Origin: an uncultured Gammaproteobacteria bacterium
GTDB lineage: Bacteria; Patescibacteriota; Patescibacteriia; Magasanikbacterales; UBA922
Assembly: GCA_964571295.1 (NCBI GenBank)
Contig: CAZNAO010000002.1
Location: 8,594 to 61,495 of the forward strand
Length of the DNA stretch: 52,902 nt
Direction: 5' to 3'
Shown here: positions 5,158-49,829 of the stretch, piece by piece
Numbering within the stretch: position 1 is the stretch's first letter
How the letters are laid out: every line of letters begins with the position of its first letter
Notes under the pieces: model-generated
The model's database searches: none
Seen by the model: only the letters and a program-made list of their open reading frames with translations
What the model was told of the DNA's origin: nothing
Translations under genes and position numbers: made by a program

Positions 5158-5172
5158 ACCATGATTCCGGAG

Positions 5173-5745
5173 TTATTTCCTCAGTGACAATTCATACACG
5201 ACATGCTCGATCTTCGAGACCGCAGTTTTCGCCTGGTCAAATTTATTGCGAAGATAGCTCGTAAGATTGCATTCGATCAATTCCCCGATGATCTCTTCTG
5301 CAGCTTCGGCACACTTGGTGACCGTAGCATGGTCGCGCGCGGTCGCAGCTTTGACCGCATACCGATACAATTCTCCGGGTACATCAGTCAACCCGGCGAC
5401 ATACGACTCTGGCGAGATTTTCAACCCTTTCACTTCTCCGATTTTTCCTGTCGTCACAAACTGATACATAAGCTCAGCCTCTACAAATTCTTCAATCGCG
5501 GCTTTATAAGCACCTTCATCAAGAGCCCGAGTATCTTTACTGTATGTTTTTGCGATAGTCCCAAGGATCGTTTTCGCTTCTGCCAGTTTTGTTCCCGCTT
5601 CTTTCACCTGATCACGATGTAGTGCAAAGATCGCGCGCTTGGCATGAAATAAGGCATCATTTGAATCCTTGATCACTTTCTGACGGACGTCAGCATATGA
5701 CAATAAGTCTTTTCTGATTTTTGAGAGAAGCGAAGTATTGAGCAT
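5173..5745 (-). CDS. translin family protein
   Basis: All-helical 190-aa protein. The YVAGLTDVPGELYRY segment matches the translin/TRAX signature (GLxDxxGELxR). Confidence 0.6.
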   Translation of the reverse strand: MLNTSLLSKIRKDLLSYADVRQKVIKDSNDALFHAKRAIFALHRDQVKEAGTKLAEAKTILGTIAKTYSKDTRALDEGAYKAAIEEFVEAELMYQFVTTGKIGEVKGLKISPESYVAGLTDVPGELYRYAVKAATARDHATVTKCAEAAEEIIGELIECNLTSYLRNKFDQAKTAVSKIEHVVYELSLRK

Positions 5746-15410: not shown

Positions 15411-17990
15411 ATGTTACCACTGCTGCAATTCACTACCGGATTTCCTGAAGAAACCTCACTCGTCGTACCTACCGGGATCACTATCCCGTTTTTTACAGTG
15501 ATTGTTGCGGCAGTAACTCTCATATCAATGATAGCTATTATTCTGATTATCCGAAGTGTTCTCCATTCGGTTCATCAGGTACGGAAAGCATTTGATCGTA
15601 CCGTACTCCATATTCTCGTACCCAAAGAACGCAAATCCGAAGGTTCGGGAAATGCATCTCAGGAAGACCGTCTTGAACAAGTGAAAGAAGAAATTGGAAT
15701 CACTGAAACATTCTTCTCCACCGTTGCCGGACTGAAGCCTGAGCACGGACTCGGAAAATGGTTTACCGGTCGAAATGACCACATCTCATTTGAATTAGTG
15801 GTTGACAATGGACTCATCAACTTCTATATCGCGGTCCCACACAAATTCAAGCCGTTTGTTGAACAACAGATCAATGCGCAATACCCCTACGCACATATCG
15901 AAGAAATCACCGACTATAATATTTTTACTGAAAAAAGTTCCATTGTGGGGGCGTATCTTAAAGCAAAAGACGCTGCACCACTCCCTTTTAAAACCTATAA
16001 AAAAATGGATTCCGATCCCCTGTCCGGCATACTCAATGCACTCGCCCGGATCCACGAGGCAGACAGTTCTGCTGCAATCCAATTCGTACTTCGTCCTGCG
16101 TATAAAAAATGGCGTCGCGAAGGGGTACGCATCGTTCGCGAAGTCCGAAAAGGAAAACGGTTTGAAGAGGTGGTTGGTGGAAAACATTCAATCGGAGGTT
16201 TTTTAAACTCATTCAGTGCTGAAGCGAAACGGCAGGTTCTTGATCTCAATACCACAGAAACAACAAAGGAAGCATACCAACTCTCAGCTCTCGAAGAAGA
16301 AATGCTCAAAGGAATCGAAGAAAAACTGATCAAAGGAGGGCTCGATGTCACGATTCGTGTCGTATCAGCATCTGACAATCCAGAGCTTGCCCGCATGAAT
16401 CTCGACAATATCGTCAATTCGTTCGGCCCGTACAATCTCTACCGGTACGGCAATTCACTGGAAGCGATCGTTCCCAAAAATCCGCAAAGCATTATCCGAT
16501 CGTTCATCTACCGCTCATTTCATGAAAAGCGCCACAGTATCCTCAATACCGAAGAAATGGCAGGATTCTGGCATCTGCCGCTTCACTCGACTGAAGCTCC
16601 GAATATCAAGTGGCTCCTTGCGCGTAAAGCTCCACCACCACCCAACCTCCCTACAAGCGGTATCGATCTCGGACGAGTCATCTATCGCGGGCAGGAATAT
16701 CCCGTGAAGATGAAAGACGAGGACCGTCGCCGTCATCTCTATGTCATTGGAAAATCCGGAAGCGGGAAATCAGTGTTCATCGAAAACCTTGCGGTGCAGG
16801 ATGTGATCAATGGCAAGGGTCTTGCGGTTATTGACCCTCATGGAGATTTTGCTGAATACGTACTCGAACACATCCCGAAAGAACGCGCTGACGACGTCAT
16901 CATCTTCAATCCATCTGATTTCGAGCGACCGATCGGACTCAACATGCTTGAAGCAAAAAGTGAGGATGAAAAAGACTTTGCGGTGCAAGAAATGATCGCG
17001 ATCTTCTACAAACTCTTCCCTCCTGAGATGATCGGACCCATGTTCGAACACAACATGCGAAATGTGATGTTGACCCTCATGGCCGACCTCGATAATCCAG
17101 GCACCATAATAGATATTCCCCGCATGTTCACTGATGATGCGTATGTCAAAAAATATCTGGTGAAATTAAAAGATCCGGTTGTACGTGCATTCTGGGAAAA
17201 AGAAATGGCAAAGACGAGTGATTTCCATAAATCGGAGATGCTTGGATACCTTATCTCGAAAGTCGGACGATTCGTAGAGAATGAAATGATGCGGAATATC
17301 ATGGGACAGCAAAAATCAGGATTTGATTTTCGTGATATCATGGATAACCAGAAGATCCTGATCGTCAACCTTGCTAAAGGAAAAACCGGTGAAGTGAATG
17401 CGAAACTTATCGGCCTCATCATCGTCGCGAAGCTCCAAATGGCGGCACTCGGCCGCGCTGACCTTCCGGAAGATCAGCGCAAGGACTTCTATCTCTATAT
17501 CGACGAGTTCCAAAATTTCATCACTGATTCGATCGCCACCATCCTTTCCGAAGCCCGCAAGTACCGGCTCGACCTCATCATTGCGCATCAGTATCTCGGA
17601 CAACTGACTGATGAAAAAGGCAAATCGGATATCAAGGATGCGGTTCTTGGAAACGCAGGTACTATGGCAGCCTTCCGTATCGGTCCTGAAGACTCGGAAT
17701 TGCTTGCCAAGGAATTTGCACCTGTATTTGGCCCCTATGACCTTATGAATGTCGAGAAATTCACCGCCAATATCAAACTGCTTATCGACAATGAACCCAC
17801 CAAGCCCTTTAATATGGCAACCTACCCCCCAACTCGGGGAAACAGAGAATTGGGTAATGCTATCCGCGAACTCTCACGCCTCAAACACGGCCGTGATCGA
17901 CGGATTGTGGAAGCTGAGATACTTGAACGTACCAAACTCGGAGAAAGTACCGAGGGAAGTAAAACAGACATGATCGAGGCGAGTCTGTAA
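15411..17990 (+). CDS. VirD4/TraD-like (type IV coupling protein-like) P-loop ATPase, N-terminal TM
   Basis: Walker A YVIGKSGSGKS, Walker B FYLYIDEFQNF, and the AHQYLGQL motif typical of the TraG/TraD C-terminal region. An N-terminal hydrophobic helix is present. Confidence 0.75.
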   Translation: MLPLLQFTTGFPEETSLVVPTGITIPFFTVIVAAVTLISMIAIILIIRSVLHSVHQVRKAFDRTVLHILVPKERKSEGSGNASQEDRLEQVKEEIGITETFFSTVAGLKPEHGLGKWFTGRNDHISFELVVDNGLINFYIAVPHKFKPFVEQQINAQYPYAHIEEITDYNIFTEKSSIVGAYLKAKDAAPLPFKTYKKMDSDPLSGILNALARIHEADSSAAIQFVLRPAYKKWRREGVRIVREVRKGKRFEEVVGGKHSIGGFLNSFSAEAKRQVLDLNTTETTKEAYQLSALEEEMLKGIEEKLIKGGLDVTIRVVSASDNPELARMNLDNIVNSFGPYNLYRYGNSLEAIVPKNPQSIIRSFIYRSFHEKRHSILNTEEMAGFWHLPLHSTEAPNIKWLLARKAPPPPNLPTSGIDLGRVIYRGQEYPVKMKDEDRRRHLYVIGKSGSGKSVFIENLAVQDVINGKGLAVIDPHGDFAEYVLEHIPKERADDVIIFNPSDFERPIGLNMLEAKSEDEKDFAVQEMIAIFYKLFPPEMIGPMFEHNMRNVMLTLMADLDNPGTIIDIPRMFTDDAYVKKYLVKLKDPVVRAFWEKEMAKTSDFHKSEMLGYLISKVGRFVENEMMRNIMGQQKSGFDFRDIMDNQKILIVNLAKGKTGEVNAKLIGLIIVAKLQMAALGRADLPEDQRKDFYLYIDEFQNFITDSIATILSEARKYRLDLIIAHQYLGQLTDEKGKSDIKDAVLGNAGTMAAFRIGPEDSELLAKEFAPVFGPYDLMNVEKFTANIKLLIDNEPTKPFNMATYPPTRGNRELGNAIRELSRLKHGRDRRIVEAEILERTKLGESTEGSKTDMIEASL

Positions 17991-30361: not shown

Positions 30362-30706
30362 TCACGCACGCACCTTCTCCGGGGCTCGGTATGCCGCGTG
30401 TGCGGCAACCTTGCCCTCCATCTCGAGCTCGATCCTGATCTGATCGACCAAGTCGTCGCCCTCTTTCGGCGTCATCGCGACGATCAACTGTCCGACCGGA
30501 GTGTCGATCGTGACCGAGACATGCTCTTTGAGCGTCTTGAAGGACGCGACGTAGAGCTGCCGGAAGACCGGACTCTGCCACTCCTTCGTGACCGTGATTA
30601 CGTCTTTCGCGGACGAACTCACTTTCATCGAGCCGACGATCTTGCCCGGTCCCCCGAATAATGCGTCGAGCTTCATCTCGATTTCCTGCGCTTTTTCCGG
30701 CTTCAC
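30362..30706 (-). CDS. hypothetical protein (GC-rich islet)
   Basis: 114-aa ORF with balanced composition, preferred over the overlapping Arg-rich 158-aa frame. A 12-bp perfect hairpin follows at 30303-30349. Confidence 0.45.
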   Translation of the reverse strand: MKPEKAQEIEMKLDALFGGPGKIVGSMKVSSSAKDVITVTKEWQSPVFRQLYVASFKTLKEHVSVTIDTPVGQLIVAMTPKEGDDLVDQIRIELEMEGKVAAHAAYRAPEKVRA

Positions 30707-30861
30707 AGCGGTTTCCCCCTTTGCATTGCGCTGTCTCCCTGGTCAATACAGGCATGACCAAAAGATAGACGATCCTACCCTATTCTTGCTTCGCTGTCAA
30801 GGTTACCCGAATTATCCACACGATACCAAAAAATGGCTATAATAACAAGGTATTCCCCTAT

Positions 30862-30889
30862 TTGACAACAACAACACAGCTGATACAAT
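30862..30889 (+). promoter_or_regulatory. sigma70-like promoter with extended -10
   Basis: TTGACA(30862-30867), 16-nt spacer, TGaTACAAT(30881-30889). Confidence 0.5.
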
Positions 30890-30896
30890 TCCCCTA

Positions 30897-31075
30897 TCAT
30901 TTACAATCCAACCATATCCTACTGGAACCGGGGTGGAATTCCCCGACTGTGCCGCAACGGTAAAAGTCCGATCTTGTAGAATATGTGTCCTCCCGAGCAG
31001 GAAACGATACGTCGTATCTTTATGATACCGGCGTATTGTATATACACATTCCTCGGCTCAGGGGAATTTTTTTTA
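30897..31075 (+). promoter_or_regulatory. cobalamin riboswitch-like leader (aptamer plus intrinsic terminator)
   Basis: Core GGAACCGGGGUGGAAUUCCCCGACUGUGCCGCAACGGUAAAAGUCCG (30924-30970) and B12-box-like CUCCCGAGCAGGA (30990-31002). Terminator AUUCCUC/GGGGAAU (31048-31067) plus U8. Shares an exact 16-mer CTGTGCCGCAACGGTA and the 13-mer with the leader at 26958-27105. Confidence 0.7.
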
Positions 31076-31083
31076 TCTCAACT

Positions 31084-31704
31084 ATGCAAAAAAAGCTCCT
31101 ATATTTCCTCATTACTCTTTTTGCCACGGCGACCTTGGTAAGCGGGTATTGGATAGTTGAAGGCCAAAAAATCAAAACGCCTGAAAACGAACCAATTACC
31201 ATTACCGAATCGCAATACGATGATAGGCAAGAGGTTGCAGAAGAGGAACAGGAAATTGAATCCAATACCGAAGACACTGTCAATTATCGGTCCACGACCA
31301 CTCAGACAATCAGTGATCCCAACCATCAGGAAACCAAGCCTCCTGCAGAGGCGACAATCGCCCCCGATGAAGAAACTAATCCTTACGAAATATTTGAAGC
31401 GAAAGTGACGCTCGCGATCGATGGAAAAAATCTTCATATCCCCTATCACGATAGCATGACCGCTGAACGTGCGATGCGGGAAGTTGCACAACGGTATCCT
31501 GAATCATTCCACTATGAAGGAATCGAATATGGCGGGGACCTCGGCACATTCGTGACGGCGATCAACGGTAAGAAAGAAAATCCACAAGAAAAAATGCGCT
31601 GGATCCTGTATCTCAATGGAAGCGCATCAAATAAAGGAATATCAACACTCAAACTTAATCCAGACGATATACTCTCATGGAACTATGAAAAAGAAACTCT
31701 ATAG
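31084..31704 (+). CDS. membrane-anchored DUF4430 domain protein
   Basis: Start at MQKKLLYFLITLF (signal/TM), then an acidic linker. C-terminal GTFVTAINGKKENPQEKMRWILYLNGSASNKGISTLKLNPDDILSW matches the DUF4430 pattern. Confidence 0.75.
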   Translation: MQKKLLYFLITLFATATLVSGYWIVEGQKIKTPENEPITITESQYDDRQEVAEEEQEIESNTEDTVNYRSTTTQTISDPNHQETKPPAEATIAPDEETNPYEIFEAKVTLAIDGKNLHIPYHDSMTAERAMREVAQRYPESFHYEGIEYGGDLGTFVTAINGKKENPQEKMRWILYLNGSASNKGISTLKLNPDDILSWNYEKETL

Positions 31705-34348
31705 CCTGCTCGTAATCATATCACTTCTTTTCTCAAATATCGGATTTGTATACGCAACAGAAGAATCTATCGAAGAAACAATTGTCGAAACTACAGAACA
31801 AATTCCGCAAGAGAATACTCCAGACGAAACCGTAGAATCACCAACTTCAACTTCTGATGCAATACCTGAAAATCTGCCTACGCGTACGGCGAAACTCAGA
31901 ATCGAAACATCTGAAGGGGTCTTGTTTGAAGATTCCGTTACCTTTAGTGCATGCAAACCATATGAGACGTCTGAAGAATATACACTCAACGCGAAATGCC
32001 TCATTGAGCAAACGGACGGACTGGACGTAGTTTGGGCTCCGGGTGATGACGCATGGCTTGATCGAATAAACCAATACGGCACAAACTTTTCAACAGGCTT
32101 ATACTGGACATACTTTGTAAATCTCGAATATGGGTCAGTTGCACTGAATCGTTTACCAGTACATGAAGGAGATGAAGTGTTGCTTGCGTACGGGATAAAC
32201 CCGCTTAAGATAGAAATGGACACTCTTTCACCCACCCTTTACACGACAACGACAGTGCGTGTATATGAATTTGGTTTTGATGAATTCTGGGCTCCGGTAT
32301 GGCTTCCTTCAAACAGCAGTACTCTATTGCTCGACGGTGATTCGGTTGCCGTCTCTCAAAATGGAGAAGTAGCTCTTGCATTTGATGCACTCGATATACA
32401 AACGCTTCGGGCGGTTAAAGCGGGATTTGCCCAAAGCAACACTATTGACGTGCATTCGGTATTACCGACAACCCGAGCGGAGTTATATGCAGTTGCACAC
32501 GGACAAACTCTGTTCCATGACACGGTAGAAGTCAGTGCATGCAGACCCGACGAAGCACAAATTGAGAGATACACTCTCAACGCAAAATGCCTCATTGATC
32601 AGTCCCTCCTCGCTGTGTCTTGGAATTATTACGGAGGACCTGGCGCATTTCTGGATTCAATAAATGACTATACAACTGATTGGAACAACAACTATTGGTG
32701 GGTATACATGATAAATTTGCAGCCAGAAGAAACGCTTGCACTCAATCAATACCAATTACGTGAAGGAGATGAAATATTGATCTACTACAATGCACTTCCA
32801 TTGGATATTGCATTTTCAACTACCACTCCGGTTGTAGGTACTACGTCATCTATTTCAGTTTTAGAATTTTCATACCCTCAGTGGATATCTACTACGAATA
32901 CTATCCTTACTATTAATGGCGAAATTCATGAACTTGGTGAATCGTCGCAGTATGAATTGAATATCACGACCACCACACCCTATCTGATTCGTGCGGAAAA
33001 AGAAGGATACATCACGATTGAAAAAACCTTGGTAGCAACCACGACCCAATCTACCGGTGAATCAACTGGAAACAATGAAGGAACAGGAAACAGTGGCGGC
33101 TCATCAGGGGAAAGTACCACCAATCCTGTACAGCGCATGATCCAATTCCTCGACAGCACACAAAATGCCGATGGATCATTCGGTTCAACTCCATTCTTGA
33201 GTGACTGGGCTGCACTTGCCTATGGTTCATGGACCGGTTCTTCACAGGGACTAAGTCTGCTCAAAAATTACCTTGCGACTGATCCTAATCCGCTTGACGG
33301 ACCGAACACGACGGCAAATTATGCACGGCGTGCAATGGCACTCATGGCAGTCGGTGTGAACCCGTATTCCGGGACCGCAACCAATTACATTGAAAAAATA
33401 ATTGCAGAATTTGATGGAAAACAATTCGGAGATACAGGACTGATAAATGACGATATCTTTGCACTGGTTCCACTTCTCAAAGCAGGATACCAACATGATG
33501 CGCTTGTCGCTTCCACAACTACATTCATCGTTGAGCATCAGGAAGCGAACGGATCATTTGGCTCGGTTGACCTCACGGCAGCTGCAATCCAGGCACTCTC
33601 CCCGCTCTCGTCGATTACCGGAGTCTCCGATGCGCTGGTGCGAGCAAAAGCATATCTCAAGAGCGCAGAGCGGACTGACGGCGGATTTGGTGATGTATAC
33701 GCGACTGGATGGGCACTCCAGGCAATCAGCGCCCTGGGTGATACATCTGCCGAATGGCTATTGAATGGTAATTCACCTGTCTCATATATCACCCAAAAGC
33801 AGGCTGCCGATGGTGGGTTACTCGTCGAAGACAGTACCACCAACCGTATCTGGTCTACTTCATACGCAATCCCCGGCCTGCTTGGCAAATCATGGAATAC
33901 GATCCTTGCCTCATTTGAAAAACCCGGAACCACACATGGAACCGGTGAATCAAGCACTACAACAACTCCGGAAATCGTCACTTCGACACCAGTACTTGGA
34001 GATACAGCCTCCTCTACCCCGACATCAACGATTGACGTAATTATTGAAGAAACAGATGCATCTTCGACTGTGATTAGCTCTCGGCCGCTTGCATCAGTAT
34101 CCGAGCGAACTATAGCCCTTACACCTACAATCGTCCGAGGAGAACGAATTACCGAAAACGAGGAGATTACGACTGAATCCGAAGACACGATAACTCCTAC
34201 ATCTTCAGCAGAAATAGTACTTGGAGAGACGACCGCTACTCCCGACTCACCACCTTCTCTGGCAAAATATATATTTTGGGGTTCGAGTGCCGCACTGTTG
34301 CTTGTACTTGGTTACACCTGGTCTACCCGACCCACTTCAAAAAAATAA
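31685..34348 (+). CDS. large surface protein: 2x DUF4430-like domains, Ig-like spacers, alpha/alpha-toroid (prenyltransferase/transcobalamin alpha-like) domain, C-terminal TM anchor
   Basis: Signal peptide MKKKLYSLLVIISLLFSNIGFVYA. Two paralogous ~110-aa blocks (YTLNAKCLIEQ.../YTLNAKCLIDQ...). Repeated QNADGSFG / ANGSFG / TDGGFG / ADGGL motifs typical of alpha/alpha toroids. C-terminal hydrophobic helix plus a basic tail (TRPTSKK). Confidence 0.8.
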   Translation: MKKKLYSLLVIISLLFSNIGFVYATEESIEETIVETTEQIPQENTPDETVESPTSTSDAIPENLPTRTAKLRIETSEGVLFEDSVTFSACKPYETSEEYTLNAKCLIEQTDGLDVVWAPGDDAWLDRINQYGTNFSTGLYWTYFVNLEYGSVALNRLPVHEGDEVLLAYGINPLKIEMDTLSPTLYTTTTVRVYEFGFDEFWAPVWLPSNSSTLLLDGDSVAVSQNGEVALAFDALDIQTLRAVKAGFAQSNTIDVHSVLPTTRAELYAVAHGQTLFHDTVEVSACRPDEAQIERYTLNAKCLIDQSLLAVSWNYYGGPGAFLDSINDYTTDWNNNYWWVYMINLQPEETLALNQYQLREGDEILIYYNALPLDIAFSTTTPVVGTTSSISVLEFSYPQWISTTNTILTINGEIHELGESSQYELNITTTTPYLIRAEKEGYITIEKTLVATTTQSTGESTGNNEGTGNSGGSSGESTTNPVQRMIQFLDSTQNADGSFGSTPFLSDWAALAYGSWTGSSQGLSLLKNYLATDPNPLDGPNTTANYARRAMALMAVGVNPYSGTATNYIEKIIAEFDGKQFGDTGLINDDIFALVPLLKAGYQHDALVASTTTFIVEHQEANGSFGSVDLTAAAIQALSPLSSITGVSDALVRAKAYLKSAERTDGGFGDVYATGWALQAISALGDTSAEWLLNGNSPVSYITQKQAADGGLLVEDSTTNRIWSTSYAIPGLLGKSWNTILASFEKPGTTHGTGESSTTTTPEIVTSTPVLGDTASSTPTSTIDVIIEETDASSTVISSRPLASVSERTIALTPTIVRGERITENEEITTESEDTITPTSSAEIVLGETTATPDSPPSLAKYIFWGSSAALLLVLGYTWSTRPTSKK

Positions 34349-34386
34349 TATAATATCGTATACTTACTCCCGTCGAACTATAACCC

Positions 34387-34929
34387 ATGCTTATGAAAAA
34401 ATATCTGAGTATCGTACTGGCTCTTGCTGGATATGGCATCATTGCCCGTCTCATGCCGCATTCTCCTAATTTTGTACCTATTACAGCGCTTGCACTCGTC
34501 GGCGGCCTCTATCTCCCGCGACAGTGGGCATATGTGGTTCCGATTGCCGCAATGTTCGTGAGCGATCTCATTATCGGTTTCTATCACCCACTCATCATGC
34601 TCTCAGTCTATGCATGTCTCATTCTTGCCACATATCTCGGGAGCAAGGCACGAAGACACAAGCGTTTCACCCTGATCGCAAGTATTACTCTTGCAAGCTC
34701 GATCGCGTTTTATCTTGCTACCAATGCGATGGTATGGGCATTCGGCACGCTGTATCCAAAGACTATAAGCGGACTTATGGAAAGCTATTATCTGGCTCTT
34801 CCTTTCTTCCGCAATAGCCTCCTCAGTGATTTCTTCTACACCGGAGTGTTGGTGGGAGGTATTGAGCTCATGCGATTCGCGATTCGCACCAAAAACACCA
34901 CACCTGCCGCTGACAAACCTATTGTATAA
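34387..34929 (+). CDS. small polytopic membrane protein, possible vitamin-transporter (ECF S-component-like) subunit
   Basis: 180 aa, about 5-6 TM helices, N-terminal HSPNFVPITALAL motif. It is the last gene of the riboswitch-controlled operon, before the terminator. Confidence 0.6.
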   Translation: MLMKKYLSIVLALAGYGIIARLMPHSPNFVPITALALVGGLYLPRQWAYVVPIAAMFVSDLIIGFYHPLIMLSVYACLILATYLGSKARRHKRFTLIASITLASSIAFYLATNAMVWAFGTLYPKTISGLMESYYLALPFFRNSLLSDFFYTGVLVGGIELMRFAIRTKNTTPAADKPIV

Positions 34930-34942
34930 TATTACCCCATTC

Positions 34943-34972
34943 AAAAACACCCTGATGATCAGGGTGTTTTTG
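34943..34972 (+). terminator. intrinsic terminator ending the riboswitch-controlled operon
   Basis: ACACCCTGA/TCAGGGTGT stem followed by TTTTT. Confidence 0.7.
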
Positions 34973-35108
34973 ATAAACAGTAAAATTTGACACACTTGCC
35001 AATTATTTCTCTTCCTGATATACTCTCTGATTATAAATTTACTCATTGACCAACGAGCAAGCGACTGCAGACCCTTGCGATTTGTTCTTTGTTATCTTTT
35101 TCTATCCT

Positions 35109-35795
35109 ATGGACACACCCAAGAAAAAAATAGCGGTATTTGATATCGATGGTACTATTTTCCGTTCCAACCTTCATTTTGAGCTTTTCAAAGGACTGGT
35201 GGAGTATGGAATATTCCCCTCGATCGTGCTCAAAGAAATCGAGGAATATCATGACGACTGGATCAACCGCCGTGGACATTACCGGGATTTCGAAAAATCG
35301 CTTATTGTCTCCTATCAAAACCGCCTGAAAGGAAAAGTGGTTGAAGATATTGAAAAAGTCAGCAGGATCGTCGTTCGGGAAAAAATGGAACATGTCTATG
35401 TCTACACACGTGATATGATCGAGAGATTAAGGCACGATCATATCCTTCTTGCTATTTCAGGCTCTCCTCACGAAATTGTCACAGCGTTCACCGAATACTG
35501 GAAGTTTGACCGTGCATATGGCACCGTATATGCATCTGAAAACGGCATTTTTACAAGTGACATCATTTTCCCTTCATACGAAATCAAAGATCAAACTCTT
35601 AAAAACTTTTGTATTGAATCAGGTCTATCACTCGAAGGATCGGTCGGTATCGGTGATACGAGCGGAGACGTTCTATTCCTCGACCTCGTCGAACATCCGA
35701 TCGTATTCAACCCAAGCAGAGAACTGTTTTCCGTAGCACAAGAAAAGAAATGGAAAACTGTTGTCGAACGAAAAGATGTGATTTACGAAATATAG
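35109..35795 (+). CDS. HAD-IB family hydrolase (phosphoserine phosphatase-like)
   Basis: DIDGTIF motif I, SGSP motif II, GDTSGD motif IV. Confidence 0.85.
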   Translation: MDTPKKKIAVFDIDGTIFRSNLHFELFKGLVEYGIFPSIVLKEIEEYHDDWINRRGHYRDFEKSLIVSYQNRLKGKVVEDIEKVSRIVVREKMEHVYVYTRDMIERLRHDHILLAISGSPHEIVTAFTEYWKFDRAYGTVYASENGIFTSDIIFPSYEIKDQTLKNFCIESGLSLEGSVGIGDTSGDVLFLDLVEHPIVFNPSRELFSVAQEKKWKTVVERKDVIYEI

Positions 35796-36472: not shown

Positions 36473-37168
36473 TCATTCCGGAATTTGGCGCACACCAAAT
36501 GCTTCTATCGTCCTGCCTGATTTAGGACCAACAACCATCACCCGATCCCCCACTTCAAGCTTTCGATGTGTCATGAGACGGGTTCCTGGTCCTATCGAGA
36601 CAATAATTACTTCCCGTCTCGGATTTTCCATATCGAATCCTTTCTGTGTAAAGAAAATAATTTTTCCTACTTCGGCGTTGCGCCATACTGGTTCCCGTAT
36701 ATCCCGATACAGATTTTCTACCACTGGAATATGCACATATTCCACACGGCGCATGATAACAAAATGAAGCGGCGTCCGAGTGAGTATCCAGGCGGTCGCG
36801 AGTACAATCACCACAACCCCGAATGCGGAATACAGAAGCGGACGACGGTAAGCAAATGAATATTTCCGCACAAGGAGTTCAAGCACGATCAGAAATATAC
36901 CGACCAGGATAATCAATATCCAGGGCAATGACTGAAAAAATACGAACAGTCCCCGAAGTCCAAGACCTGGAGCGAATATGATACCGGTTTCTCGGAGTCC
37001 GAACATAATCAAACTCATCAAATAGATCAACACCAGAGAGAGAATGGTGAATCCGAGAACCGCCAACATGGTTTTGAGGACAAAATGCCACCGAGGACGC
37101 ATCACAATTTCACCCTGCCTGATTGCCGAGAGAATTTTGTCTTGTAATTTTTGGTTTTGTTCGTTCAT
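36473..37168 (-). CDS. polytopic membrane protein, putative anti-sigma/partner of the ECF sigma
   Basis: Start overlaps the sigma gene stop (ATGA coupling). 4-5 TM helices. Confidence 0.55.
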   Translation of the reverse strand: MNEQNQKLQDKILSAIRQGEIVMRPRWHFVLKTMLAVLGFTILSLVLIYLMSLIMFGLRETGIIFAPGLGLRGLFVFFQSLPWILIILVGIFLIVLELLVRKYSFAYRRPLLYSAFGVVVIVLATAWILTRTPLHFVIMRRVEYVHIPVVENLYRDIREPVWRNAEVGKIIFFTQKGFDMENPRREVIIVSIGPGTRLMTHRKLEVGDRVMVVGPKSGRTIEAFGVRQIPE

Positions 37169-37728
37169 ATACTTGATTCAAGTTTGCAGTTTTTTTTGAG
37201 TTGCGCTTTTGCTCGCGCAATACGGACTCCCACGGTAGATATCGGTATCGAAAGAATATCCGCGATTTCTTTGTATTCCAGCTCTTCCAGATAACATAAT
37301 ATCAGAACTTCACGGTACTTAGGAGCAAGCTCCTTCAATCTATCTACAATTTTTCCGATATTTTCTTTCGTATCAAGCGCTTCTTCAAGAGAATTTTCCG
37401 CGGATATAGGCAATTTGACCAGTGTATCGAAGTCAAAAAATGACACAGGCTCTCGTCCGTTTTTCTTGATTACGTTGATAAACGTATTGTGCGCAATCCG
37501 ATATATCCAGGTCGAAAATTTTCTATTGGTATTAAAACTCTTGATGTTTTTATACGTCTTGATAAATACCTCCTGCACCGCGTCTTCCAAGTCTTCATAT
37601 GAATACAAAAATCGCTGACCGTACCGCAGCATTTTTTGTTCATATCGTTGAAATAGGATGGTAAACGCCTCTTGTTTGCCGCTCTGCACTTCCCGGGCAA
37701 GCTCCTCATCGCTTAGGATTATTTCCAT
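37165..37728 (-). CDS. ECF-type RNA polymerase sigma factor
   Basis: Region 2 (FSTWIYRIAHNTFIN) and region 4 (LSIPISTVGVRIARAK) signatures. Confidence 0.9.
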   Translation of the reverse strand: MEIILSDEELAREVQSGKQEAFTILFQRYEQKMLRYGQRFLYSYEDLEDAVQEVFIKTYKNIKSFNTNRKFSTWIYRIAHNTFINVIKKNGREPVSFFDFDTLVKLPISAENSLEEALDTKENIGKIVDRLKELAPKYREVLILCYLEELEYKEIADILSIPISTVGVRIARAKAQLKKNCKLESSI

Positions 37729-38324
37729 ATACGCAATCTGACACCCAATATATATTTATCTCTAATACACCTATCTTATGGGTTTTATTTCAAAAGCCGG
37801 ATACCCGCCCGGCTCTTGTCTGTATTCAAAACTTTTTATTTTCCCTGCCTGCCTTTACAGCTCTTCAAAATAAACCACTTCTTTTTCCCCATAGTGATAA
37901 TATCTCGACATAAAACTGGTCTCTGAGCAGGCCAGTTTTATGTTACAATATAAGCACTAGTCGCCATTTTTTTCGTCTTCATCTTTTTGGTCTTCTTCAC
38001 CCATTTTTTTGCCGATATCAAAATGGTTCGGTTTTTGCTCATCATCGTTGTTGTGGTACATATAATTTACACGTTACACTAAATTCTCTTTGATTCTCGA
38101 GCATCGAAGAAAATTAGCATGAATAAAGACTCCTATTTTTACTATAAACCCCCCATTACTATAAGTCAACAGAGTATCTTATTCTCTTGACAATTACTTT
38201 TATGTATGATATATTTTGCTGTTTATTTTGGGCTACACCAAACGTACTTTCATAAGCACGTTTCATGAAGCCACAAAAGAGGGGTGGTCTTTCACACCTT
38301 ACACAATCCACCAAGGAGCAGGTC

Positions 38325-38891
38325 ATGGATCTCACCGCTGAGTTTCTAGCACAGTACAAGGCTGGAAATCAAGGTGCACATACACTCGTATACCAACACT
38401 ACCAAGGAAAGATATTCCGTACCATCATACGCATGGTCAAGGATGAACAGATAGCTGCAGAGTTGACGCAGGAGACATTTCTCAAATCGATCGAACACGC
38501 GAAGTCCTTCAACACGCGTTATCAGCTGAGCACCTGGCTCTACCGCATCGCACAGAACCTGGCAATCTCACACCTACGCCGAAAACGAAACCGGAGATAC
38601 ACCAACTACACCGAAGAGGGCGGATATATTGGCAACTCATCTCGTGTTGCAAGTCTGAATCCTCACATTGAACCGTACGATGCGGCCATGATCGCAGAGC
38701 TCCTGCATGCATTTTCGAAACTCAGTCCCAAGGAACAACTCCTTCTGGAGCTCCAGTTCAAGGGAATGACCTTCGAAGAAGTGGCTCATGAACTCAACTG
38801 TCCAGTGGCAAACACGACCAAAACACAGACTATTCGAGCTCGAGCTAAGATGCGTGCGCTCATGCCGGATTATGTCCGGCGCATCCCATAA
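38325..38891 (+). CDS. sigma-70 family (ECF-like) sigma factor
   Basis: AAGGAG RBS 6 nt before the ATG at 38325. Region 2 LSTWLYRIAQNLAISHLRR, plus a region 4 HTH. Promoter TTGACA(38188)-17 nt-TATATT upstream. Confidence 0.8.
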   Translation: MDLTAEFLAQYKAGNQGAHTLVYQHYQGKIFRTIIRMVKDEQIAAELTQETFLKSIEHAKSFNTRYQLSTWLYRIAQNLAISHLRRKRNRRYTNYTEEGGYIGNSSRVASLNPHIEPYDAAMIAELLHAFSKLSPKEQLLLELQFKGMTFEEVAHELNCPVANTTKTQTIRARAKMRALMPDYVRRIP

Positions 38892-42946: not shown

Positions 42947-45900
42947 TTAGTTACACGCGGCTGCATTCAGTGCGGCACGGGTCGCGGGTCCGATATACCC
43001 AACCTGTTCGATACCCTGAGCTTTCTGGAAACGAAGTACAGCATCTCTCGTGAGAGGACCAAAAAATGCGGTCGGTATATGAGAAAAATATGATGCTTTG
43101 GTTAATAATGTCTGTGCCATTCGAACCGAATCATTGGTCATACCATACGTAAGGGTCTGCTCGGTCCTGAGGCAGGCAGCACTACCACCCTCCCTTCGTG
43201 TGGCAGTGGATTCTCGTGTTGACCCATTACACGAACCTTCGTGTATCTGTTTTATTTTTGCAAGACTCGTCGTGTAGATATACCCTGTTCCTTTAAAAAT
43301 ACCCCATGGTGCCAAGACATCGGCTGCATTTTTTTCTTGCCACCGGATCACCGCATCGACATCAATTTTTTCATAGATTCCATTAATCGGAAGTTGTGTC
43401 CCCTCATACGTATTCAAAAATTTTTCCAGAAGACGCACATCATCAGGATTATTAGTAGTTCCGAATTTTACCGGATTATGCAGGTATACTTCTACCGCAC
43501 AGGCAAGAGTGGGAGGAGACACCACCACCGATGTCTCCGTGAGTGTAATCGTGTCAGAAATTACCAACGTACCCCCATCTCCTGACCGAAGCTTTACATA
43601 TACCGTTTTCATTCCCGGTGTCGCACTGAGCGTGTATGGATATGAATTTGCAAATTGCACAAAAGTAGCGTTTTCAAATTTAGGATCTTCGCTTATTGCC
43701 ATTTCTACTGCATTAGTCGCACTGACGGAAAGCGTGACACTTCTTTCAGAAGTTTCCGCTGCTCCTGTATTTATTTCAAGTGCACCAGTAGAGGTAGTTG
43801 CTCTGGTAATTTTCGGAATACTTGGTGGAGTGAAGGTGCTGCCAGAAGAAACCGGCTGACCGAATAATCCAAAAATGGAAAAACTGTTCGAGGTGCAACT
43901 GATCGTATTTGCCGCGGTATCCGTCGTACAATTTTCGAGTTTTTGCCACGAACTATTATGGTAATGATAGAGTGCAAGTGTCGTCTCACGCAGACCGAGA
44001 ATATCGGCATCGGAGTACGTATAGGTAATCGTCACTGGGGCATCAAACGAATCAAGTACGGTTGTACCATTGATGATCGCTTTCGCATCGAATACAACCG
44101 GACCCACTTTTTCCGCACGCGTAAACGGCATACCGGTCGCACTGAGAGCCTGGGTTCCGGATAATGCGTGCACTTGAATTACAACCGAATCTGAGGACGT
44201 GGTGATATTTGCCGGAAACGTAAACTGTATTGCCGAATTCTGTTCCGAAAGTCCCGTCGAACCTCCCGAGGCTGTAGTGATAGGAGTAGAGGTCGCGGCT
44301 GATACCGATGCCTGCCCCGTACAGCCGGATGTCATAAATACTCCATCAGCATCAGTCGAAGTCGAGACATTTCCCCAGCGATCACGTGATTCCACTTTGT
44401 AGTAATAGGTCGTACAAGAAATAAGCGAGGAGACCGGTGAGCCGTGCGTATACACGCGCGTACTCGTATTTATTTCATTCGTACTCATATAACTTGAGGT
44501 TGGTGTAATCGTATAATACACCCTGCTCGATGCTGATTCATTGGTATTCCAGCTGATAGTTGCCGTGGTCGCACCCGTGACTGCTGCCACATTGGTAATA
44601 ATAGGCGCCACATGTTCCTCGATCAAAACCGTAACTAGAATCGTATCCGTTCCCCCGATACCGTCCGACGCTTCGACTACAAAACTATCTTCTCCACTAT
44701 AGTCTTCAACCGGAATATAAGTGACCGTAATACTATCTCCCACACCGGTCGAACTGACAGTGCCATGGGATGCAGCACCTGACACACTCCATGAAATACT
44801 GTGATAATCAGGATCAGTCGCGTTCAAGGTCAATGAAAACGGAACCGGGTCGGCATTCATATCCATCGTCACTTCGACTTCGCCACCTTCGGTAATTTCC
44901 GGAGGATTATTGATATCGGTAAATCCGATACTTCGGAAGGTTGCATTGCTTTCATCATATCCGTCAAATACTACAAATTCAACCATTCGTGAGTCGGATA
45001 CGGGCTCGGTACTGCTGTTCATATATCGTACCGACCGAAGTGCAGCCTGGTAATTGGCGAGTGTTGAGGTGCCGGTAAGATACAATACACCACTCACGAA
45101 CGTTCCACTGATGCCATTCTGATTGATGAATATAAGGCTGTCTTCCTCCGACTCGTAATTGTCCGTAATAGCAATCGTCGAACTTACGATCTCGTCTGAG
45201 TCAACATCAGTAATGGTTACCGCGTCGTCAATAATGACCCCTCCTGATCCAGTAACATATTGCATTTCTGGACGCGTAACCGCAGGAAACAGCGATGCCT
45301 GCGGAATCACTGTCATGCCCTGACCCGGGTATTGCCATTGCAGAATTGCCACTTCCCCACCTCCCCGTTCATAGAATTCAAATCGGATATCATGCATTGA
45401 ATCAGCCTCGAAGGTGACCGGTGTTGCATAATCAAGAGTCGTACCATGCAACGTCCAGTTGTCGAGTACCAATTCTCCATCGATCCACAACCGGACCCCA
45501 TCGTCGCTATACGTAGTAAAAATAAACTCACCGCTTACCGGAGCTTTCACCTGTCCGGTCCACCTGACACTGAAATTTTCCACATCCAGTCCTGGAACGC
45601 CAAAATTATTTTCAAAATTTACTGTGCTATCGATTCTCTGATACGTCGGCCCCGTAAGATCCCATTCATTGATATAGTATGTCGCACTCAACCCAATTCC
45701 TGTGGGACCGCTCAGGGTCTGAAGCACGGGAGCGTCATTGACTGCAGTAATCGGTATCGTCACAGTTGATGAAGGAGAATTGACAGCGCCATCATGCGGA
45801 TCAACAACTACATATACGAAAAAAGCATCGGTGTCACGACCTGCGTCTGGTCTAAACCTGAAATCAATCGTATCAGTATTTAAACTAAGTGTGGTGCCCG

Positions 45901-46216
45901 CAGTTCCCAACCCAATACTACTACCATCTCCCGTCCACAGTGTCCCTCCGGTTACACTAATAATACGTATTGCTGATGGCGCACCACCTTCAGGATCGAC
46001 TAAATTGGGCACAATCAATCTAATATTTGAGCTTTCCGGCTGTACTGCATCTTCATTGATACTCACCGGACTCTCATCGATCGGACTGACCACGGTCGTA
46101 TTGCCGCCCGCCTCGGGTGCTGCGGCGCGTACCACTCCTACGCCGATATTCAAAAAGCAGAGTGAGAATATCGTTACGACGCTTATCATGCGCACTAATA
46201 GTTTGCGATTTTTCAT
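42947..46216 (-). CDS. giant secreted adhesin-like protein (cadherin-like, PA14, Fn3, C-terminal peptidoglycan-binding domain)
   Basis: Signal peptide MKNRKLLVRMISVVTIFSL. NDAPV and NNPPEI cadherin-like motifs. PA14-like YYINEWDL...FSVRWTGQV...DDGVRLWIDGELVLDNW. Fn3-like ATISWNTNESASSRVYY. PG_binding_1-like VRMAQTLL...RDAVLRFQKAQGI. Confidence 0.8.
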   Translation of the reverse strand: MKNRKLLVRMISVVTIFSLCFLNIGVGVVRAAAPEAGGNTTVVSPIDESPVSINEDAVQPESSNIRLIVPNLVDPEGGAPSAIRIISVTGGTLWTGDGSSIGLGTAGTTLSLNTDTIDFRFRPDAGRDTDAFFVYVVVDPHDGAVNSPSSTVTIPITAVNDAPVLQTLSGPTGIGLSATYYINEWDLTGPTYQRIDSTVNFENNFGVPGLDVENFSVRWTGQVKAPVSGEFIFTTYSDDGVRLWIDGELVLDNWTLHGTTLDYATPVTFEADSMHDIRFEFYERGGGEVAILQWQYPGQGMTVIPQASLFPAVTRPEMQYVTGSGGVIIDDAVTITDVDSDEIVSSTIAITDNYESEEDSLIFINQNGISGTFVSGVLYLTGTSTLANYQAALRSVRYMNSSTEPVSDSRMVEFVVFDGYDESNATFRSIGFTDINNPPEITEGGEVEVTMDMNADPVPFSLTLNATDPDYHSISWSVSGAASHGTVSSTGVGDSITVTYIPVEDYSGEDSFVVEASDGIGGTDTILVTVLIEEHVAPIITNVAAVTGATTATISWNTNESASSRVYYTITPTSSYMSTNEINTSTRVYTHGSPVSSLISCTTYYYKVESRDRWGNVSTSTDADGVFMTSGCTGQASVSAATSTPITTASGGSTGLSEQNSAIQFTFPANITTSSDSVVIQVHALSGTQALSATGMPFTRAEKVGPVVFDAKAIINGTTVLDSFDAPVTITYTYSDADILGLRETTLALYHYHNSSWQKLENCTTDTAANTISCTSNSFSIFGLFGQPVSSGSTFTPPSIPKITRATTSTGALEINTGAAETSERSVTLSVSATNAVEMAISEDPKFENATFVQFANSYPYTLSATPGMKTVYVKLRSGDGGTLVISDTITLTETSVVVSPPTLACAVEVYLHNPVKFGTTNNPDDVRLLEKFLNTYEGTQLPINGIYEKIDVDAVIRWQEKNAADVLAPWGIFKGTGYIYTTSLAKIKQIHEGSCNGSTRESTATRREGGSAACLRTEQTLTYGMTNDSVRMAQTLLTKASYFSHIPTAFFGPLTRDAVLRFQKAQGIEQVGYIGPATRAALNAAACN

Positions 46217-46369
46217 AGGTGCACATAGTATACCACAAATCATCCATAGTTTATGGACACCGATGTGGATGAATGTATATATTAAAACACCTCCCGAAAG
46301 AGGTGTGAGATTCAGCACAAAGAGCACCTCTTCGACGATTCCGGTGACGGAACCAGAGAACGGCGAATA

Positions 46370-47915: not shown

Positions 47916-48821
47916 TTACGTTCGCAAATACTTACGCATTGCGAGCAGACTCGAGATAAGGGTGAGTAGAAATACTGACCCGAACTGTATCCCGAGCAGG
48001 AGGAGTATATGTGATGAAAAGTAGGTTGTCAAGATTGCACTCGACTCAAAAACGACGCTGATATAGGGGTCGAGGAAGCGGAGGGTGAACCATACCGCGA
48101 CCGCAGTAATGGCACTACTCACGACGCTGAAAATAAGCGATTCGAGGATATACGGTCCACTGATAAACCAATTGGTCGCCCCCACCAGTCGCTTGATCCC
48201 GATCTCGGCGCGCTGGGTATAGATTGCGACCCGGATGGTATTGAAGATAATGACAAATGCAATCACGGCAAAGAGTGCAGTAAGTGCATAGGTAAAGCGC
48301 TCGACCTGATGCGTAACGGTCTCAATCCGATCGATTGCAGTCTCGGTATCTCCGAATGTTTTCGCTTCGATGATATCCTCGTACTCCGGCACCGAAAGTG
48401 CAGCGATGATTTTCTCATAATCTCTCGGCTCGCGCGTCTTCACGATCAGGGTTGAACCGAGTGGATTGGTACCAAGTTCGTCAAGTGATGCGATAATTTC
48501 AGTGTTTCCGGAATAGGTCGATTTGAATTCTTCGAGTACTTCCTCACGACTGAGGTATCGCTCTTCGGTTACCTCTGGCAAACCTGAGACGAAGTCGCGC
48601 ACTTCCGTAATTTTTTCTTCTGGAGCTGCTGGATCAAAATAGATACTTACATCAATCTGATCCTTGACCGAGGTGATCGATCGGTCGGTCAGGACGCGCA
48701 CGATGATAAGTGTATTGATCGACAGGAGCATGAGCACCAAAATGAGTACAGTCATGACAGACAGGCTCATGTTTCGCACGATATCCTGGAACGAGAATTT
48801 GATTATTCGACCTAAAGACAT
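47916..48821 (-). CDS. ftsX: cell division permease FtsX
   Basis: 4-TM FtsX topology with a large periplasmic loop, downstream of ftsE. Confidence 0.85.
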   Translation of the reverse strand: MSLGRIIKFSFQDIVRNMSLSVMTVLILVLMLLSINTLIIVRVLTDRSITSVKDQIDVSIYFDPAAPEEKITEVRDFVSGLPEVTEERYLSREEVLEEFKSTYSGNTEIIASLDELGTNPLGSTLIVKTREPRDYEKIIAALSVPEYEDIIEAKTFGDTETAIDRIETVTHQVERFTYALTALFAVIAFVIIFNTIRVAIYTQRAEIGIKRLVGATNWFISGPYILESLIFSVVSSAITAVAVWFTLRFLDPYISVVFESSAILTTYFSSHILLLLGIQFGSVFLLTLISSLLAMRKYLRT

Positions 48822-48921
48822 AATAAAATTTCTAATTATTCTAATTGATCTAAATATCCTAACATTTTGAACATTTTTAGAATAATTAGACTAATTAGGT
48901 TAATTAGAATAATTTCCCCAT

Positions 48922-49602
48922 TTAAATCCGGTATTTCCCTTCCCGCTCGTCACTTGATACTCGTCCCTCATGCAATACCACGACTCTGCGGCGAAGCTGA
49001 TTGACGATTTCACGGTTGTGCGTCACGAGCACGATCGTGGTACCGAATTCATTTATTTTTTTCAGAATCTCAATGATTTCCTGCGTATTGATTGAATCGA
49101 GGTTACCGGTCGGCTCATCTGCCACGAGAATTTTCGGACGATGCACGAGTGATCGGGCGATCGCTACACGCTGCTGTTCGCCACCTGAGAGCTGATGCGG
49201 ATAGCGATCCAATTTGTGTGGCAATCCCACAATTTCAAGCACACGCGGAACTACAGCTCCGATACGTGAGCGCTTTTCCCCTGCCACTTCGAGTGCAAAG
49301 GCGACGTTTTCTTTTACGGTCTTTTTGGGTAATAATTTGAAATCCTGAAAAATCACGCCGATCTGACGGCGAAGCAAAGGAATATCCGAGAGTCCTATCT
49401 TAGTGATATCCCATCCTCCGATCTCGATCGATCCTGCACTTGGTCGCTCTTCGGCAATCAGCATTTTTACCAGGGTCGTTTTTCCAGTCCCGCTTTGTCC
49501 TACGATTGAGACAAATTCGCCCGGTTCGATATGGAGGCTCACTTCATTCAATCCCACGCTGTCGCGGGAATAGAATTTGCTGACATTTTTGAGCGTAATC
49601 AT
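48922..49602 (-). CDS. ftsE: cell division ATP-binding protein FtsE
   Basis: Walker [13 protein letters not shown] signature LSGGEQQR, Walker B ILVADEP. Start at [11 protein letters not shown]. Confidence 0.9.
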
Positions 49603-49829
49603 AGATAACATAGATACGTGAAATACAGTATAACATATCTTTGAATCATGGAACAATACACATGAGACGGGCAGTACACTTTTCAACCTCTTCTGTATTT
49701 ATTTTCATTAACCTATATAAAATAAAAACTCACAAAACCAATCATTTCACCATTGTTTTCATTTCACATTGTTGCTTTTTTCCCGATGCATCTTCATGAT
49801 ATACTGTAAGCTTAATACTACATATTGAT

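Follow-up and report, generated by a model that had tools for sequence, protein, structure and literature searches.

Bacterial proteins that combine the two structural modules of the animal carriers of vitamin B12 (cobalamin) were predicted computationally by Burroughs, Balaji, Iyer and Aravind in 2007. These authors described secreted or anchored bacterial SLBB domains fused on either side to α/α toroids, with added immunoglobulin (Ig)-like domains and a second SLBB paralogue in the operon, in hosts without B12 synthesis; the SLBB genes usually adjoin CbiO- and CbiQ-like genes (PMC1796856). From the fusions, the paralogue, the hosts without B12 synthesis and the CbiO/CbiQ neighbours, B12 scavenging in auxotrophs was therefore predicted (PMC1796856). 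Here we describe an operon in a 52,902-nt (52.9-kb) stretch of contig CAZNAO010000002.1, referred to below as the window, from a small-genome member of the Patescibacteria (Candidatus Magasanikbacteria). The operon (positions 30862-34973 of the window, + strand) consists of a leader with a class-II cobalamin riboswitch and three genes, g1, g2 and g3, which encode two surface proteins with transcobalamin-type domains and a small membrane protein of the DUF6580 family. By computation it is probably a B12-repressed corrinoid capture-and-uptake operon, an assignment to which we give a probability of about 80%. Corrinoid scavenging feeding a small transporter had been proposed earlier for this DNA from the letters alone (hereafter the sequence-only reading), and this proposal is supported computationally by the riboswitch, the transcobalamin-type folds, the S-component-like carrier and the related loci.

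The window operon shares with the systems of Burroughs et al. the signal peptide or anchor, the combination of SLBB/DUF4430 domains with a C-terminal toroid, the Ig-like spacers and the second SLBB gene. Whereas their operons carry genes for a CbiO-like ATPase and a CbiQ-like membrane protein, the window operon has DUF6580 and no ATPase. Their hosts were low-GC Gram-positives, planctomycetes and euryarchaea, whereas this one belongs to the Patescibacteria, and riboswitch control is not discussed in their paper (PMC1796856). The sequence-only reading had known of no experimental characterisation of the architecture or its control. The absence of experiments stands, but the architecture and its B12-scavenging role had been predicted in 2007 (PMC1796856). 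Neither the riboswitch class nor the general concept of SLBB-toroid scavengers of B12 is new. New are the DUF6580 partner in place of an energy-coupling factor (ECF) module, the Patescibacteria host, the conservation of the operon across that group and the link between DUF6580 and B12 across phyla.

The mammalian proteins transcobalamin, intrinsic factor and haptocorrin share with g1 and g2 the α/α toroid and the DUF4430/SLBB β domain. In contrast to these carriers, the window proteins have three β domains (two in g2, one in g1) per toroid and add Ig-like spacers, a stalk and a membrane anchor, and the sequence similarity of the toroids is marginal. The window thus offers bacterial proteins with the transcobalamin modules apart (g1) and fused (g2), which is relevant to the proposal that the animal carriers originated in bacteria. 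Split α/β transcobalamin-like proteins, Lsa1839 and Lsa1840, are encoded beside an ECF transporter in Lactobacillus sakei, where a role in haem uptake has been argued (bioRxiv 10.1101/864751). BtuG and BtuH of gut Bacteroides serve the same purpose as that proposed here, extracellular high-affinity capture feeding a transporter, and are encoded in riboswitch-controlled loci (PMC8941943, PMC10404256); however, their folds are unrelated, and they feed the outer-membrane receptor BtuB, which the window operon lacks. The idea that BtuH is a DUF4430 protein was dropped; the BtuH paper mentions neither DUF4430 nor transcobalamin nor intrinsic factor.

Two described membrane carriers are comparable to g3. 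BtuM of Thiobacillus denitrificans is, like DUF6580, a small (about 20 kDa) membrane protein that adopts an S-component fold and has no ECF module nearby, and its genes, like those of the DUF6580 relatives, co-localise with btuB-like receptors and corrinoid adenosyltransferase (PMC6072759). BtuM works without an ECF module, metabolic trapping by the adenosyltransferase has been proposed, and no inner-membrane transporter for B12 is known from many bacteria that require the vitamin (PMC6072759). However, BtuM and DUF6580 have no detectable sequence similarity and occur in different phyla, BtuM is outside the top 50 Foldseek matches of g3, and its cobalt ligand Cys80 has no conserved DUF6580 equivalent. 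ECF-CbrT of Lactobacillus delbrueckii (PDB 6FNP, PMC5997447) includes the S-component CbrT, which resembles g3 in size and fold class; CbrT belongs to the Pfam family ECF_trnsprt, whereas g3 does not, and no EcfA/A'/T genes were seen near DUF6580.

A predicted riboswitch-controlled operon conserved in Patescibacteria

The sequence-only reading had placed in this region a promoter, a cobalamin riboswitch, an intrinsic terminator and three co-directional genes ending at another terminator, all of which were borne out. The promoter matches 11 of 12 positions, has the upstream TG and is the top-ranked site in a scan of 30700-35200; both hexamers are unchanged in the leaders of three related loci (L001, L003 and L004). 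The leader terminator was recovered both by a terminator scan and by folding and is likewise unchanged in these three leaders. The open reading frames (ORFs) confirm the three genes, of which g1 and g2 overlap by 20 nt, whereas homologues suggest that the true start of g3 is the ATG at 34393. The hairpin at the end of the operon has a folding energy of -22.2 kcal/mol.

Scanning the whole window with all 4227 Rfam families at gathering threshold returned four tRNAs and a single non-tRNA match, RF01689 (AdoCbl-II, clan CL00101; AdoCbl, adenosylcobalamin), at 30916-30982 on the + strand. Its score of 40.0 bits exceeds the gathering score of 36.5 bits (E 3.8e-6 for the window, 2.5e-8 for the leader alone), so that the riboswitch passes Rfam's own threshold, and the core quoted by the sequence-only reading, GGUGGAAUUCCCCGACUGUGCCGCAACGGUAA, falls inside the match. 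The T-loop hairpin motif GUGnAAUUC and ACGGUAAAAGUCCGA are both aligned to the model at high posterior probability; the hairpin itself reads GGGG-UGGAAUU-CCCC, and L5 is UGCCG (30950-30954). The leader has 82% identity in L001, L003 and L004, which score 41-45 bits with RF01689. The promoter, the CCCGAGCAGGAA element and the terminator are invariant across these leaders, and the T-loop stem shows a compensatory change from G-C to A-U in L003 and L004. The model positions for J1/3 and P3 (9-18 and 72-74) are deleted in the window alignment. Some class-II members, such as that of Enterococcus faecalis, have been reported without an identifiable J1/3, and the class ranges from AdoCbl- to methylcobalamin-selective riboswitches, with J1/3 as a selectivity determinant (PMC6158498). 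Since this determinant is missing, ligand preference is not readable from the window sequence.

The leader and all three genes were found together again in many related contigs. A scan of one genome per species yielded at least 551 confirmed DUF6580 relatives, from which the best 80 loci were kept (numbered L001 onwards); their ORFs were searched with the window proteins, and additions by Pfam were counted separately. At 63 of the 80 loci, DUF6580 is preceded on its own strand by a DUF4430-like gene, a toroid gene or both, with a g1 homologue at 58, a toroid gene at 46 and toroid and DUF4430-like genes together at 41. Pfam adds DUF4430 genes in L051, L054 and L077 (L079 is laid out like L077) and diverged toroid genes in L015, L022, L030 and L037. 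In the minimal versions of L054, L077 and L079, the riboswitch is followed by a small DUF4430 protein and then by DUF6580. Homologues of g2 and g3 with a named source belong to Candidatus Magasanikbacteria and other Patescibacteria, and a Joint Genome Institute contig with a 56%-identical g2 homologue (P0004) has the same three genes. On these sequence comparisons, the operon is conserved across Patescibacteria.

Cobalamin-clan riboswitches reached the gathering score at 18 of the 46 loci scanned and belong to three families (RF01689, RF01482 and RF00174). At 15 of these 18 loci the riboswitch is upstream on the DUF6580 strand; at L069 and L080 it is on the opposite strand, next to a divergent receptor gene, and at L060 it is downstream of DUF6580. 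Among six further operon loci without a gathering-threshold match, three have sub-threshold cobalamin matches exactly upstream of the g1-like gene. Predicted riboswitch control of the operon is therefore common, not universal. The literature search found no paper on cobalamin riboswitches in Patescibacteria. In L060, a second AdoCbl-II riboswitch (L060:2463-2536) is located downstream of DUF6580, before a gene that runs off the short contig.

Table 1. Features of the corrinoid operon in the window and of related DUF6580 loci (window positions unless a locus is given)
Feature	Position	Strand	Description
σ70-type promoter	30862-30889	+	TTGACA, 16-nt spacer, extended -10 TGaTACAAT
Class-II cobalamin riboswitch aptamer	30913-30985	+	P1 30913-30922 with 30976-30985; core ACGGUAAAAGUCCGA
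P13/L13 regulatory hairpin	30991-31002	+	stem UCC/GGA, loop CGAGCA (30994-30999)
Variable hairpin	31004-31039	+	between P13 and terminator; predicted in both alternative folds
Leader intrinsic terminator	31048-31075	+	AUUCCUC-GGCUCA-GGGGAAU + U8
g1	31084-31704	+	206 aa; N-terminal membrane anchor, acidic low-complexity linker, C-terminal DUF4430 (SLBB)
g2	31685-34348	+	887-aa exported DUF4430/Ig-like/toroid protein
g3	34387-34929	+	180-aa DUF6580 membrane protein
Operon-end terminator	34941-34973	either direction possible	perfect 15-bp hairpin with A-run and U-run flanks, read from sequence
NrdJ/adenosyltransferase clusters	L051:1312-5522; L065:31-3737; L077:1338-5468 (L079 alike)		Patescibacteria
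DUF6580 beside BtuB-like TonB receptor	L061:146-3440; L062:305-3184; L066:1685-5522; L069:2796-5480		Verrucomicrobia, Ignavibacteria, Flavobacteria

DUF6580 as a candidate corrinoid carrier

The g3 protein belongs to the Pfam family DUF6580 (E 7.5e-44), on which the literature search found no paper. This family is large, with 6,022 representatives of 50%-identity clusters at E ≤ 1e-3 and 4,129 at 1e-10, and its invariant residues include R21, H25, N28, D60, Y66, K92, W117 and a PFFRN motif. An AlphaFold model of g3 built on 40 homologues (per-residue confidence, pLDDT, 89; predicted template modelling score, pTM, 0.81) is a bundle of seven helices, in line with the S-component fold, which is small with about six membrane helices. 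The best PDB matches of the model in Foldseek are all ECF S-components (FolT, RibU, ThiT and PanT; template modelling (TM) scores 0.55-0.65), including FolT 5d0y with TM 0.58/0.65 and probability 1.0. The small membrane protein for which an ECF-S-like match had been expected therefore fits these components best in its predicted structure. Searched against PDB sequences, the DUF6580 profile had a sole match, 6fnp_A (E 0.068, helices 1-4), which we take to be from the ECF-CbrT vitamin B12 transporter; BtuM (6ffv) was not matched at E up to 10. CbrT itself matches ECF_trnsprt (PF12822) at 3.8e-11, and an hhalign comparison of DUF6580 with CbrT gave a probability of 52% over helices 1-3.

DUF6580 is tied to B12 by four independent kinds of context, namely riboswitches of three Rfam families, DUF4430 partners, BtuB-like receptors, and clusters with the ribonucleotide reductase NrdJ and adenosyltransferase. 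In these Patescibacteria clusters (L051, L065 and L077/L079), the gene order is NrdJ, CobA- or PduO-type adenosyltransferase, (in L077/L079) a riboswitch, DUF4430 and DUF6580, with NrdJ scores (TIGR02504) in L051, L065 and L077 of 681, 623 and 758 bits against a cut-off of 400. Judged by gene content, they represent a compact unit for the uptake, activation and use of B12. The literature search gave nothing useful on cobalamin together with ribonucleotide reductase in the candidate phyla radiation. In Verrucomicrobia, Ignavibacteria and Flavobacteria, DUF6580 adjoins TonB-dependent receptors whose best NCBIfam match is the B12 receptor model, below its cut-off; a cobalamin riboswitch is present at L062, L066 and L069, and none was found at the Verrucomicrobia locus L061. 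L066 also encodes a DUF5074 protein. Glycogen-branching enzyme and isoaspartyl dipeptidase genes flank DUF6580 in L067 and L076, two loci from Sphingobacteriia and Bacteroidales.

How such a carrier would be energised is the point at which another explanation is strongest. DUF6580 could be a group-II S-component that docks, like CbrT, on a shared EcfA/A'/T module encoded elsewhere in the genome, which we regard as a possible yet less likely arrangement. Shared group-II ECF modules are typically not adjacent to S-component genes, and both the best structural matches of g3, which are ECF S-components, and its only PDB sequence match, CbrT, fit this explanation. So does the usual position of SLBB genes next to CbiO/CbiQ-type genes (PMC1796856). 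However, none of the 80 loci has an ABC ATPase within about 5 kb of DUF6580; in the window there are no EcfT, EcfA or EcfA' genes, and its sole ABC ATPase is FtsE. DUF6580 also lacks a match to the Pfam ECF S-component models. Moreover, its position beside BtuB-like receptors in other phyla is the context of the ECF-free BtuM (PMC6072759), and adenosyltransferase genes adjoin DUF6580, as in the trapping logic suggested for BtuM. We therefore rank a solitary, BtuM-like mode of action somewhat ahead of the ECF-dependent one.

The expression platform

Downstream of P1 and outside the Rfam model lies CUCCCGAGCAGGA, an element that is real and strongly conserved. The sequence-only reading had called it B12-box-like, a description that had to be abandoned in favour of a P13/L13 hairpin. 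A metagenome scan for the aptamer core recovered 120 riboswitches from many organisms (with L5 fixed by the query), mostly unrelated class-II riboswitches with about 10 of the 120 linked to the operon. In 85 of the 120, CCGAGCAGG (with at most one substitution) occurs shortly after P1. The three pairs flanking the loop CGAGCA covary among 86 distinct sequences: pair 1 is CG in 58, UA in 10 and AU in 12 sequences, pair 2 is CG in 62, GC in 10, UA in 8 and UG in 4, and pair 3 is UA in 53 and CG in 20. This covariation identifies CUCCCGAGCAGGA as the P13/L13 hairpin that belongs to corrinoid riboswitches. L5 (UGCCG) and L13 (CG(A)GCA) are candidate kissing-loop partners by complementarity alone, with 5 bp and one bulged A.

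The predicted switch involves the terminator's 5' side. Its nucleotides 31049-31063 can pair instead with 30992-31003 (CCC-GAGC-AGGAA with UUCCU-cg-GCUC-a-GGG), and the resulting antiterminator is the minimum-free-energy fold of the platform alone (30990-31076, -32.9 kcal/mol). When P13 is held closed and L13 unpaired, the terminator forms in the same segment (-28.5 kcal/mol). The antiterminator is thermodynamically favoured in the window, L001, L182 and L193. The same P13/antiterminator/terminator logic has been demonstrated by mutagenesis for the Priestia megaterium metE corrinoid riboswitch (PMC10327014). The window shares with this and the env8-type class-II riboswitches the aptamer core and the T-loop L4, and with the metE leader the bulged L5/L13 complementarity and the complementarity of the P13 3' side to the terminator 5' arm (PMC10327014); unlike them, it has no J1/3 and P3. 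The arms of the variable hairpin between P13 and the terminator, read by eye, change compensatorily between the window, L001 and L003. A translational version is found in L054 (4471-4966), which lacks a terminator and in which the 3' side of P13 (AGGA) also serves as the ribosome-binding site for the DUF4430 gene.

The sequence-only reading had the switch work through the other arm, such that without ligand the terminator 3' arm (GGGGAAUU) pairs with AAUUCCCC (AUUCCCC) of the aptamer. This pairing has eight perfect base pairs on paper and is retained in L003 and L004 with one G-U wobble. However, AAUUCCCC is the 3' strand of the local 5-bp, G+C-rich T-loop hairpin, which occurs in the minimum-free-energy fold and belongs to the ligand-independent scaffold of the aptamer, and the compensatory change of this hairpin in L003 and L004 has no counterpart in the terminator. 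A 3'-arm switch would also leave the invariant P13/L13 element without a role, and the published dissection favours P13 against the terminator 5' arm (PMC10327014). With the P13-based antiterminator being both the minimum-free-energy fold and the arrangement with a precedent (PMC10327014), we consider the 3'-arm switch improbable.

The predicted surface proteins g1 and g2

Pfam identified the β domain of the transcobalamin family (DUF4430/SLBB) in both surface proteins. In g1, it covers residues 131-203 (E 1.2e-10, 42.1 bits against a cut-off of 23.8), and the single hydrophobic segment is N-terminal (residues 6-25), as predicted by the sequence-only reading for a membrane-anchored DUF4430 protein. 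In g2, two DUF4430 stretches were found (E 1.6e-11, 44.9 bits against the same cut-off of 23.8), together with a match to Cobalamin_bind (PF01122; residues 648-690, 27.3 bits with the cut-off at 25), sub-threshold Pfam matches to squalene-cyclase and prenyltransferase repeats, and four Q/ExxxGG/S(F/L) repeats. All four Cys residues of g2 are located in the DUF4430 units, one pair in each, which together with the signal peptide is as expected of an exported protein; the sequence has no LPXTG and no CxEQ thioester motif.

An AlphaFold model of g2 built on 29 homologues (mean pLDDT 79, domains above 90, pTM 0.47) starts with a signal-peptide helix and a disordered acidic linker, followed by two β-rich repeats (about 61-260 and 261-450), each composed of a DUF4430 domain and an Ig-like sandwich. 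After a 24-residue linker comes a helical α/α toroid (480-745, pLDDT mostly above 90), then a disordered Thr/Ser/Glu-rich stalk of about 110 residues (750-858), a terminal helix (859-880) and a basic tail. Model and Pfam matches agree with the signal peptide, two DUF4430 blocks, Ig-like spacers, toroid and C-terminal membrane anchor (here the terminal helix) ascribed to this protein earlier. The order β-Ig-β-Ig-α-stalk-anchor, with a further β domain on g1, differs from the soluble layout of one α domain followed by one β domain.

Searches of PDB sequences with single g1, g2 and g3 sequences gave nothing useful, and leads came from family profiles only. In Foldseek comparisons of g2 with the PDB, matches of about 300 columns were to drimenyl-diphosphate synthase, transcobalamin and intrinsic factor. 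The toroid matches transcobalamin 2bb6 (E 2.5e-6, 19% identity) and 2v3n, as well as intrinsic factor 2pmv (E 1.3e-5) and 3kq4, and the alignments with these four structures span about 300 columns at 16-19% identity. The anticipated structural similarity to transcobalamin-like folds was thus found, and the use of the same two modules, noted earlier, stands. The toroid is, however, no closer to these proteins than to terpene cyclases and thioester domains. The modelled toroid is transcobalamin-like in fold, not specifically so, and the DUF4430 domains are the firmer link.

The surface proteins might capture another tetrapyrrole such as haem, as argued for Lsa1839/Lsa1840 in the L. sakei preprint, which links the related ECF operon to haem and docks haem in modelled α/β domains (bioRxiv 10.1101/864751). 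This claim is partly docking-based, however, and the operon follows a cobalamin riboswitch in the window and in many relatives and, in some relatives, adjoins NrdJ and corrinoid adenosyltransferase; we regard capture of haem as very unlikely. That g2 is an adhesin or an α2-macroglobulin-like protease trap unrelated to B12 is less likely still: α2-macroglobulin, TEP1, CD109 and complement top the Foldseek list of the full model, but at TM about 0.2 and a root-mean-square deviation of about 30 Å these matches, rejected as homologues, reflect only a shared mix of Ig-like and toroid domains, g2 lacks the thioester motif, and this reading would explain neither its two DUF4430 domains nor the riboswitch nor its conserved partners, g1 and g3.

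Proposed pathway of corrinoid uptake

In the proposed mechanism, transcription would start at about position 30896. With a corrinoid bound in the aptamer, L5 would kiss L13 and hold P13 closed, so that the leader terminator would form and the genes would be silent. In the ligand-free leader, P13 would melt, its strand (CCC-GAGC-AGGAA) would pair with the 5' arm and loop of the terminator, and RNA polymerase would read through. The membrane-tethered g1 and g2, the latter on its stalk of about 110 residues, would then display three DUF4430 domains of the transcobalamin-β type and one toroid outside the cell, where they would bind corrinoids and pass them inward to g3, the S-component-like DUF6580 protein, for transfer across the membrane. 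The cofactor would then be adenosylated and used mainly by class-II ribonucleotide reductase, both enzymes probably being encoded by other parts of the genome. For this lineage, a host auxotrophic for B12 is plausible.

Several observations weigh against the B12 assignment or parts of it. In the leader, L5 and L13 are both invariant in the sets examined, so that covariation does not bear on the kissing contact, and the terminator is kept in the thermodynamic minimum of five more distant leaders (L105, L152, L166, L184 and L189). No riboswitch match was obtained in L006, L007 and L012, and in L006 a tRNA fills that space. For g2, the PF01122 match is short (43 residues) and barely over its cut-off, the pTM of 0.47 gives no reliable contact between β domains and toroid, and the domain order is reversed relative to the mammalian carriers. 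The g2 family profile matches squalene-hopene cyclase (3e-9) ahead of intrinsic factor (0.01) and transcobalamin (0.33) among PDB sequences, and Foldseek ranks α2-macroglobulin, TEP1, CD109 and complement first for the full model (E 1e-8 to 1e-6). For g3, the Foldseek E-values are weak (0.2-0.8), there is no match to any Pfam ECF S-component model such as PF12822 (DUF6580 only), and no Cys is found among the invariant or near-invariant DUF6580 columns, so that the Cys cobalt ligand of the BtuM type is not matched. The DUF6580 genes of L067 and L076 (about 4971-5531) have no B12 neighbour. The 52.9-kb window contains no B12-dependent enzyme or adenosyltransferase; BtuB-like receptors and corrinoid adenosyltransferases adjoin DUF6580 in relatives, and neither is found in this window. 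Finally, the literature search found no experiments on bacterial DUF4430/toroid proteins except the tests of the L. sakei lsa1836-1840 operon (bioRxiv 10.1101/864751).

Beyond the operon itself, we tentatively propose, at a little less than even odds, that DUF6580 is a previously unrecognised family of corrinoid carriers that have no ATPase of their own and act in a BtuM-like manner. Patescibacteria would take up B12 mainly through this family, which in Flavobacteria, Ignavibacteria and Verrucomicrobia would form part of the route across the inner membrane, and in Patescibacteria it would be fed by a surface relay of β domains and toroids and would supply AdoCbl to class-II ribonucleotide reductase. 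If this is true, DNA synthesis in Patescibacteria would depend on AdoCbl supplied through DUF6580, and the surface relay would correspond in bacteria to the animal B12 carriers, to which it might be related. As a group, Patescibacteria are very large, mostly uncultured and minimal in their metabolism, and little is known of how they acquire cofactors. For B12, the locus would provide them with a compact kit of a switch, surface binders and a carrier, all of them testable, and DUF6580 in particular could be tested as a candidate for a missing class of B12 carriers.

Other features of the window

The remainder of the window encodes several proteins with recognisable domains. A FtsE/FtsX pair (47916-49686, - strand) includes the only ABC ATPase of the window, which is not an ECF module. 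The 1126-aa protein at 42947-46327 (- strand) has PA14, Big_9 Ig, cadherin-like and peptidoglycan-binding domains and is probably a large cell-surface protein. An 859-aa protein (15411-17990, + strand) combines coupling domains of the VirD4/TraG/TrwB type, found in type IV secretion, with a HerA-like ATPase domain. Two genes encode ECF-type sigma factors (37165-37728, - strand; 38265-38891, + strand), the first of which overlaps the gene at 36473-37168; the latter encodes a 231-aa multi-pass membrane protein without a Pfam match, a possible anti-sigma factor. The window has 44.8% G+C, and its + strand contains 13132 C and 10572 G, a GC skew of about -0.11 over 52.9 kb.

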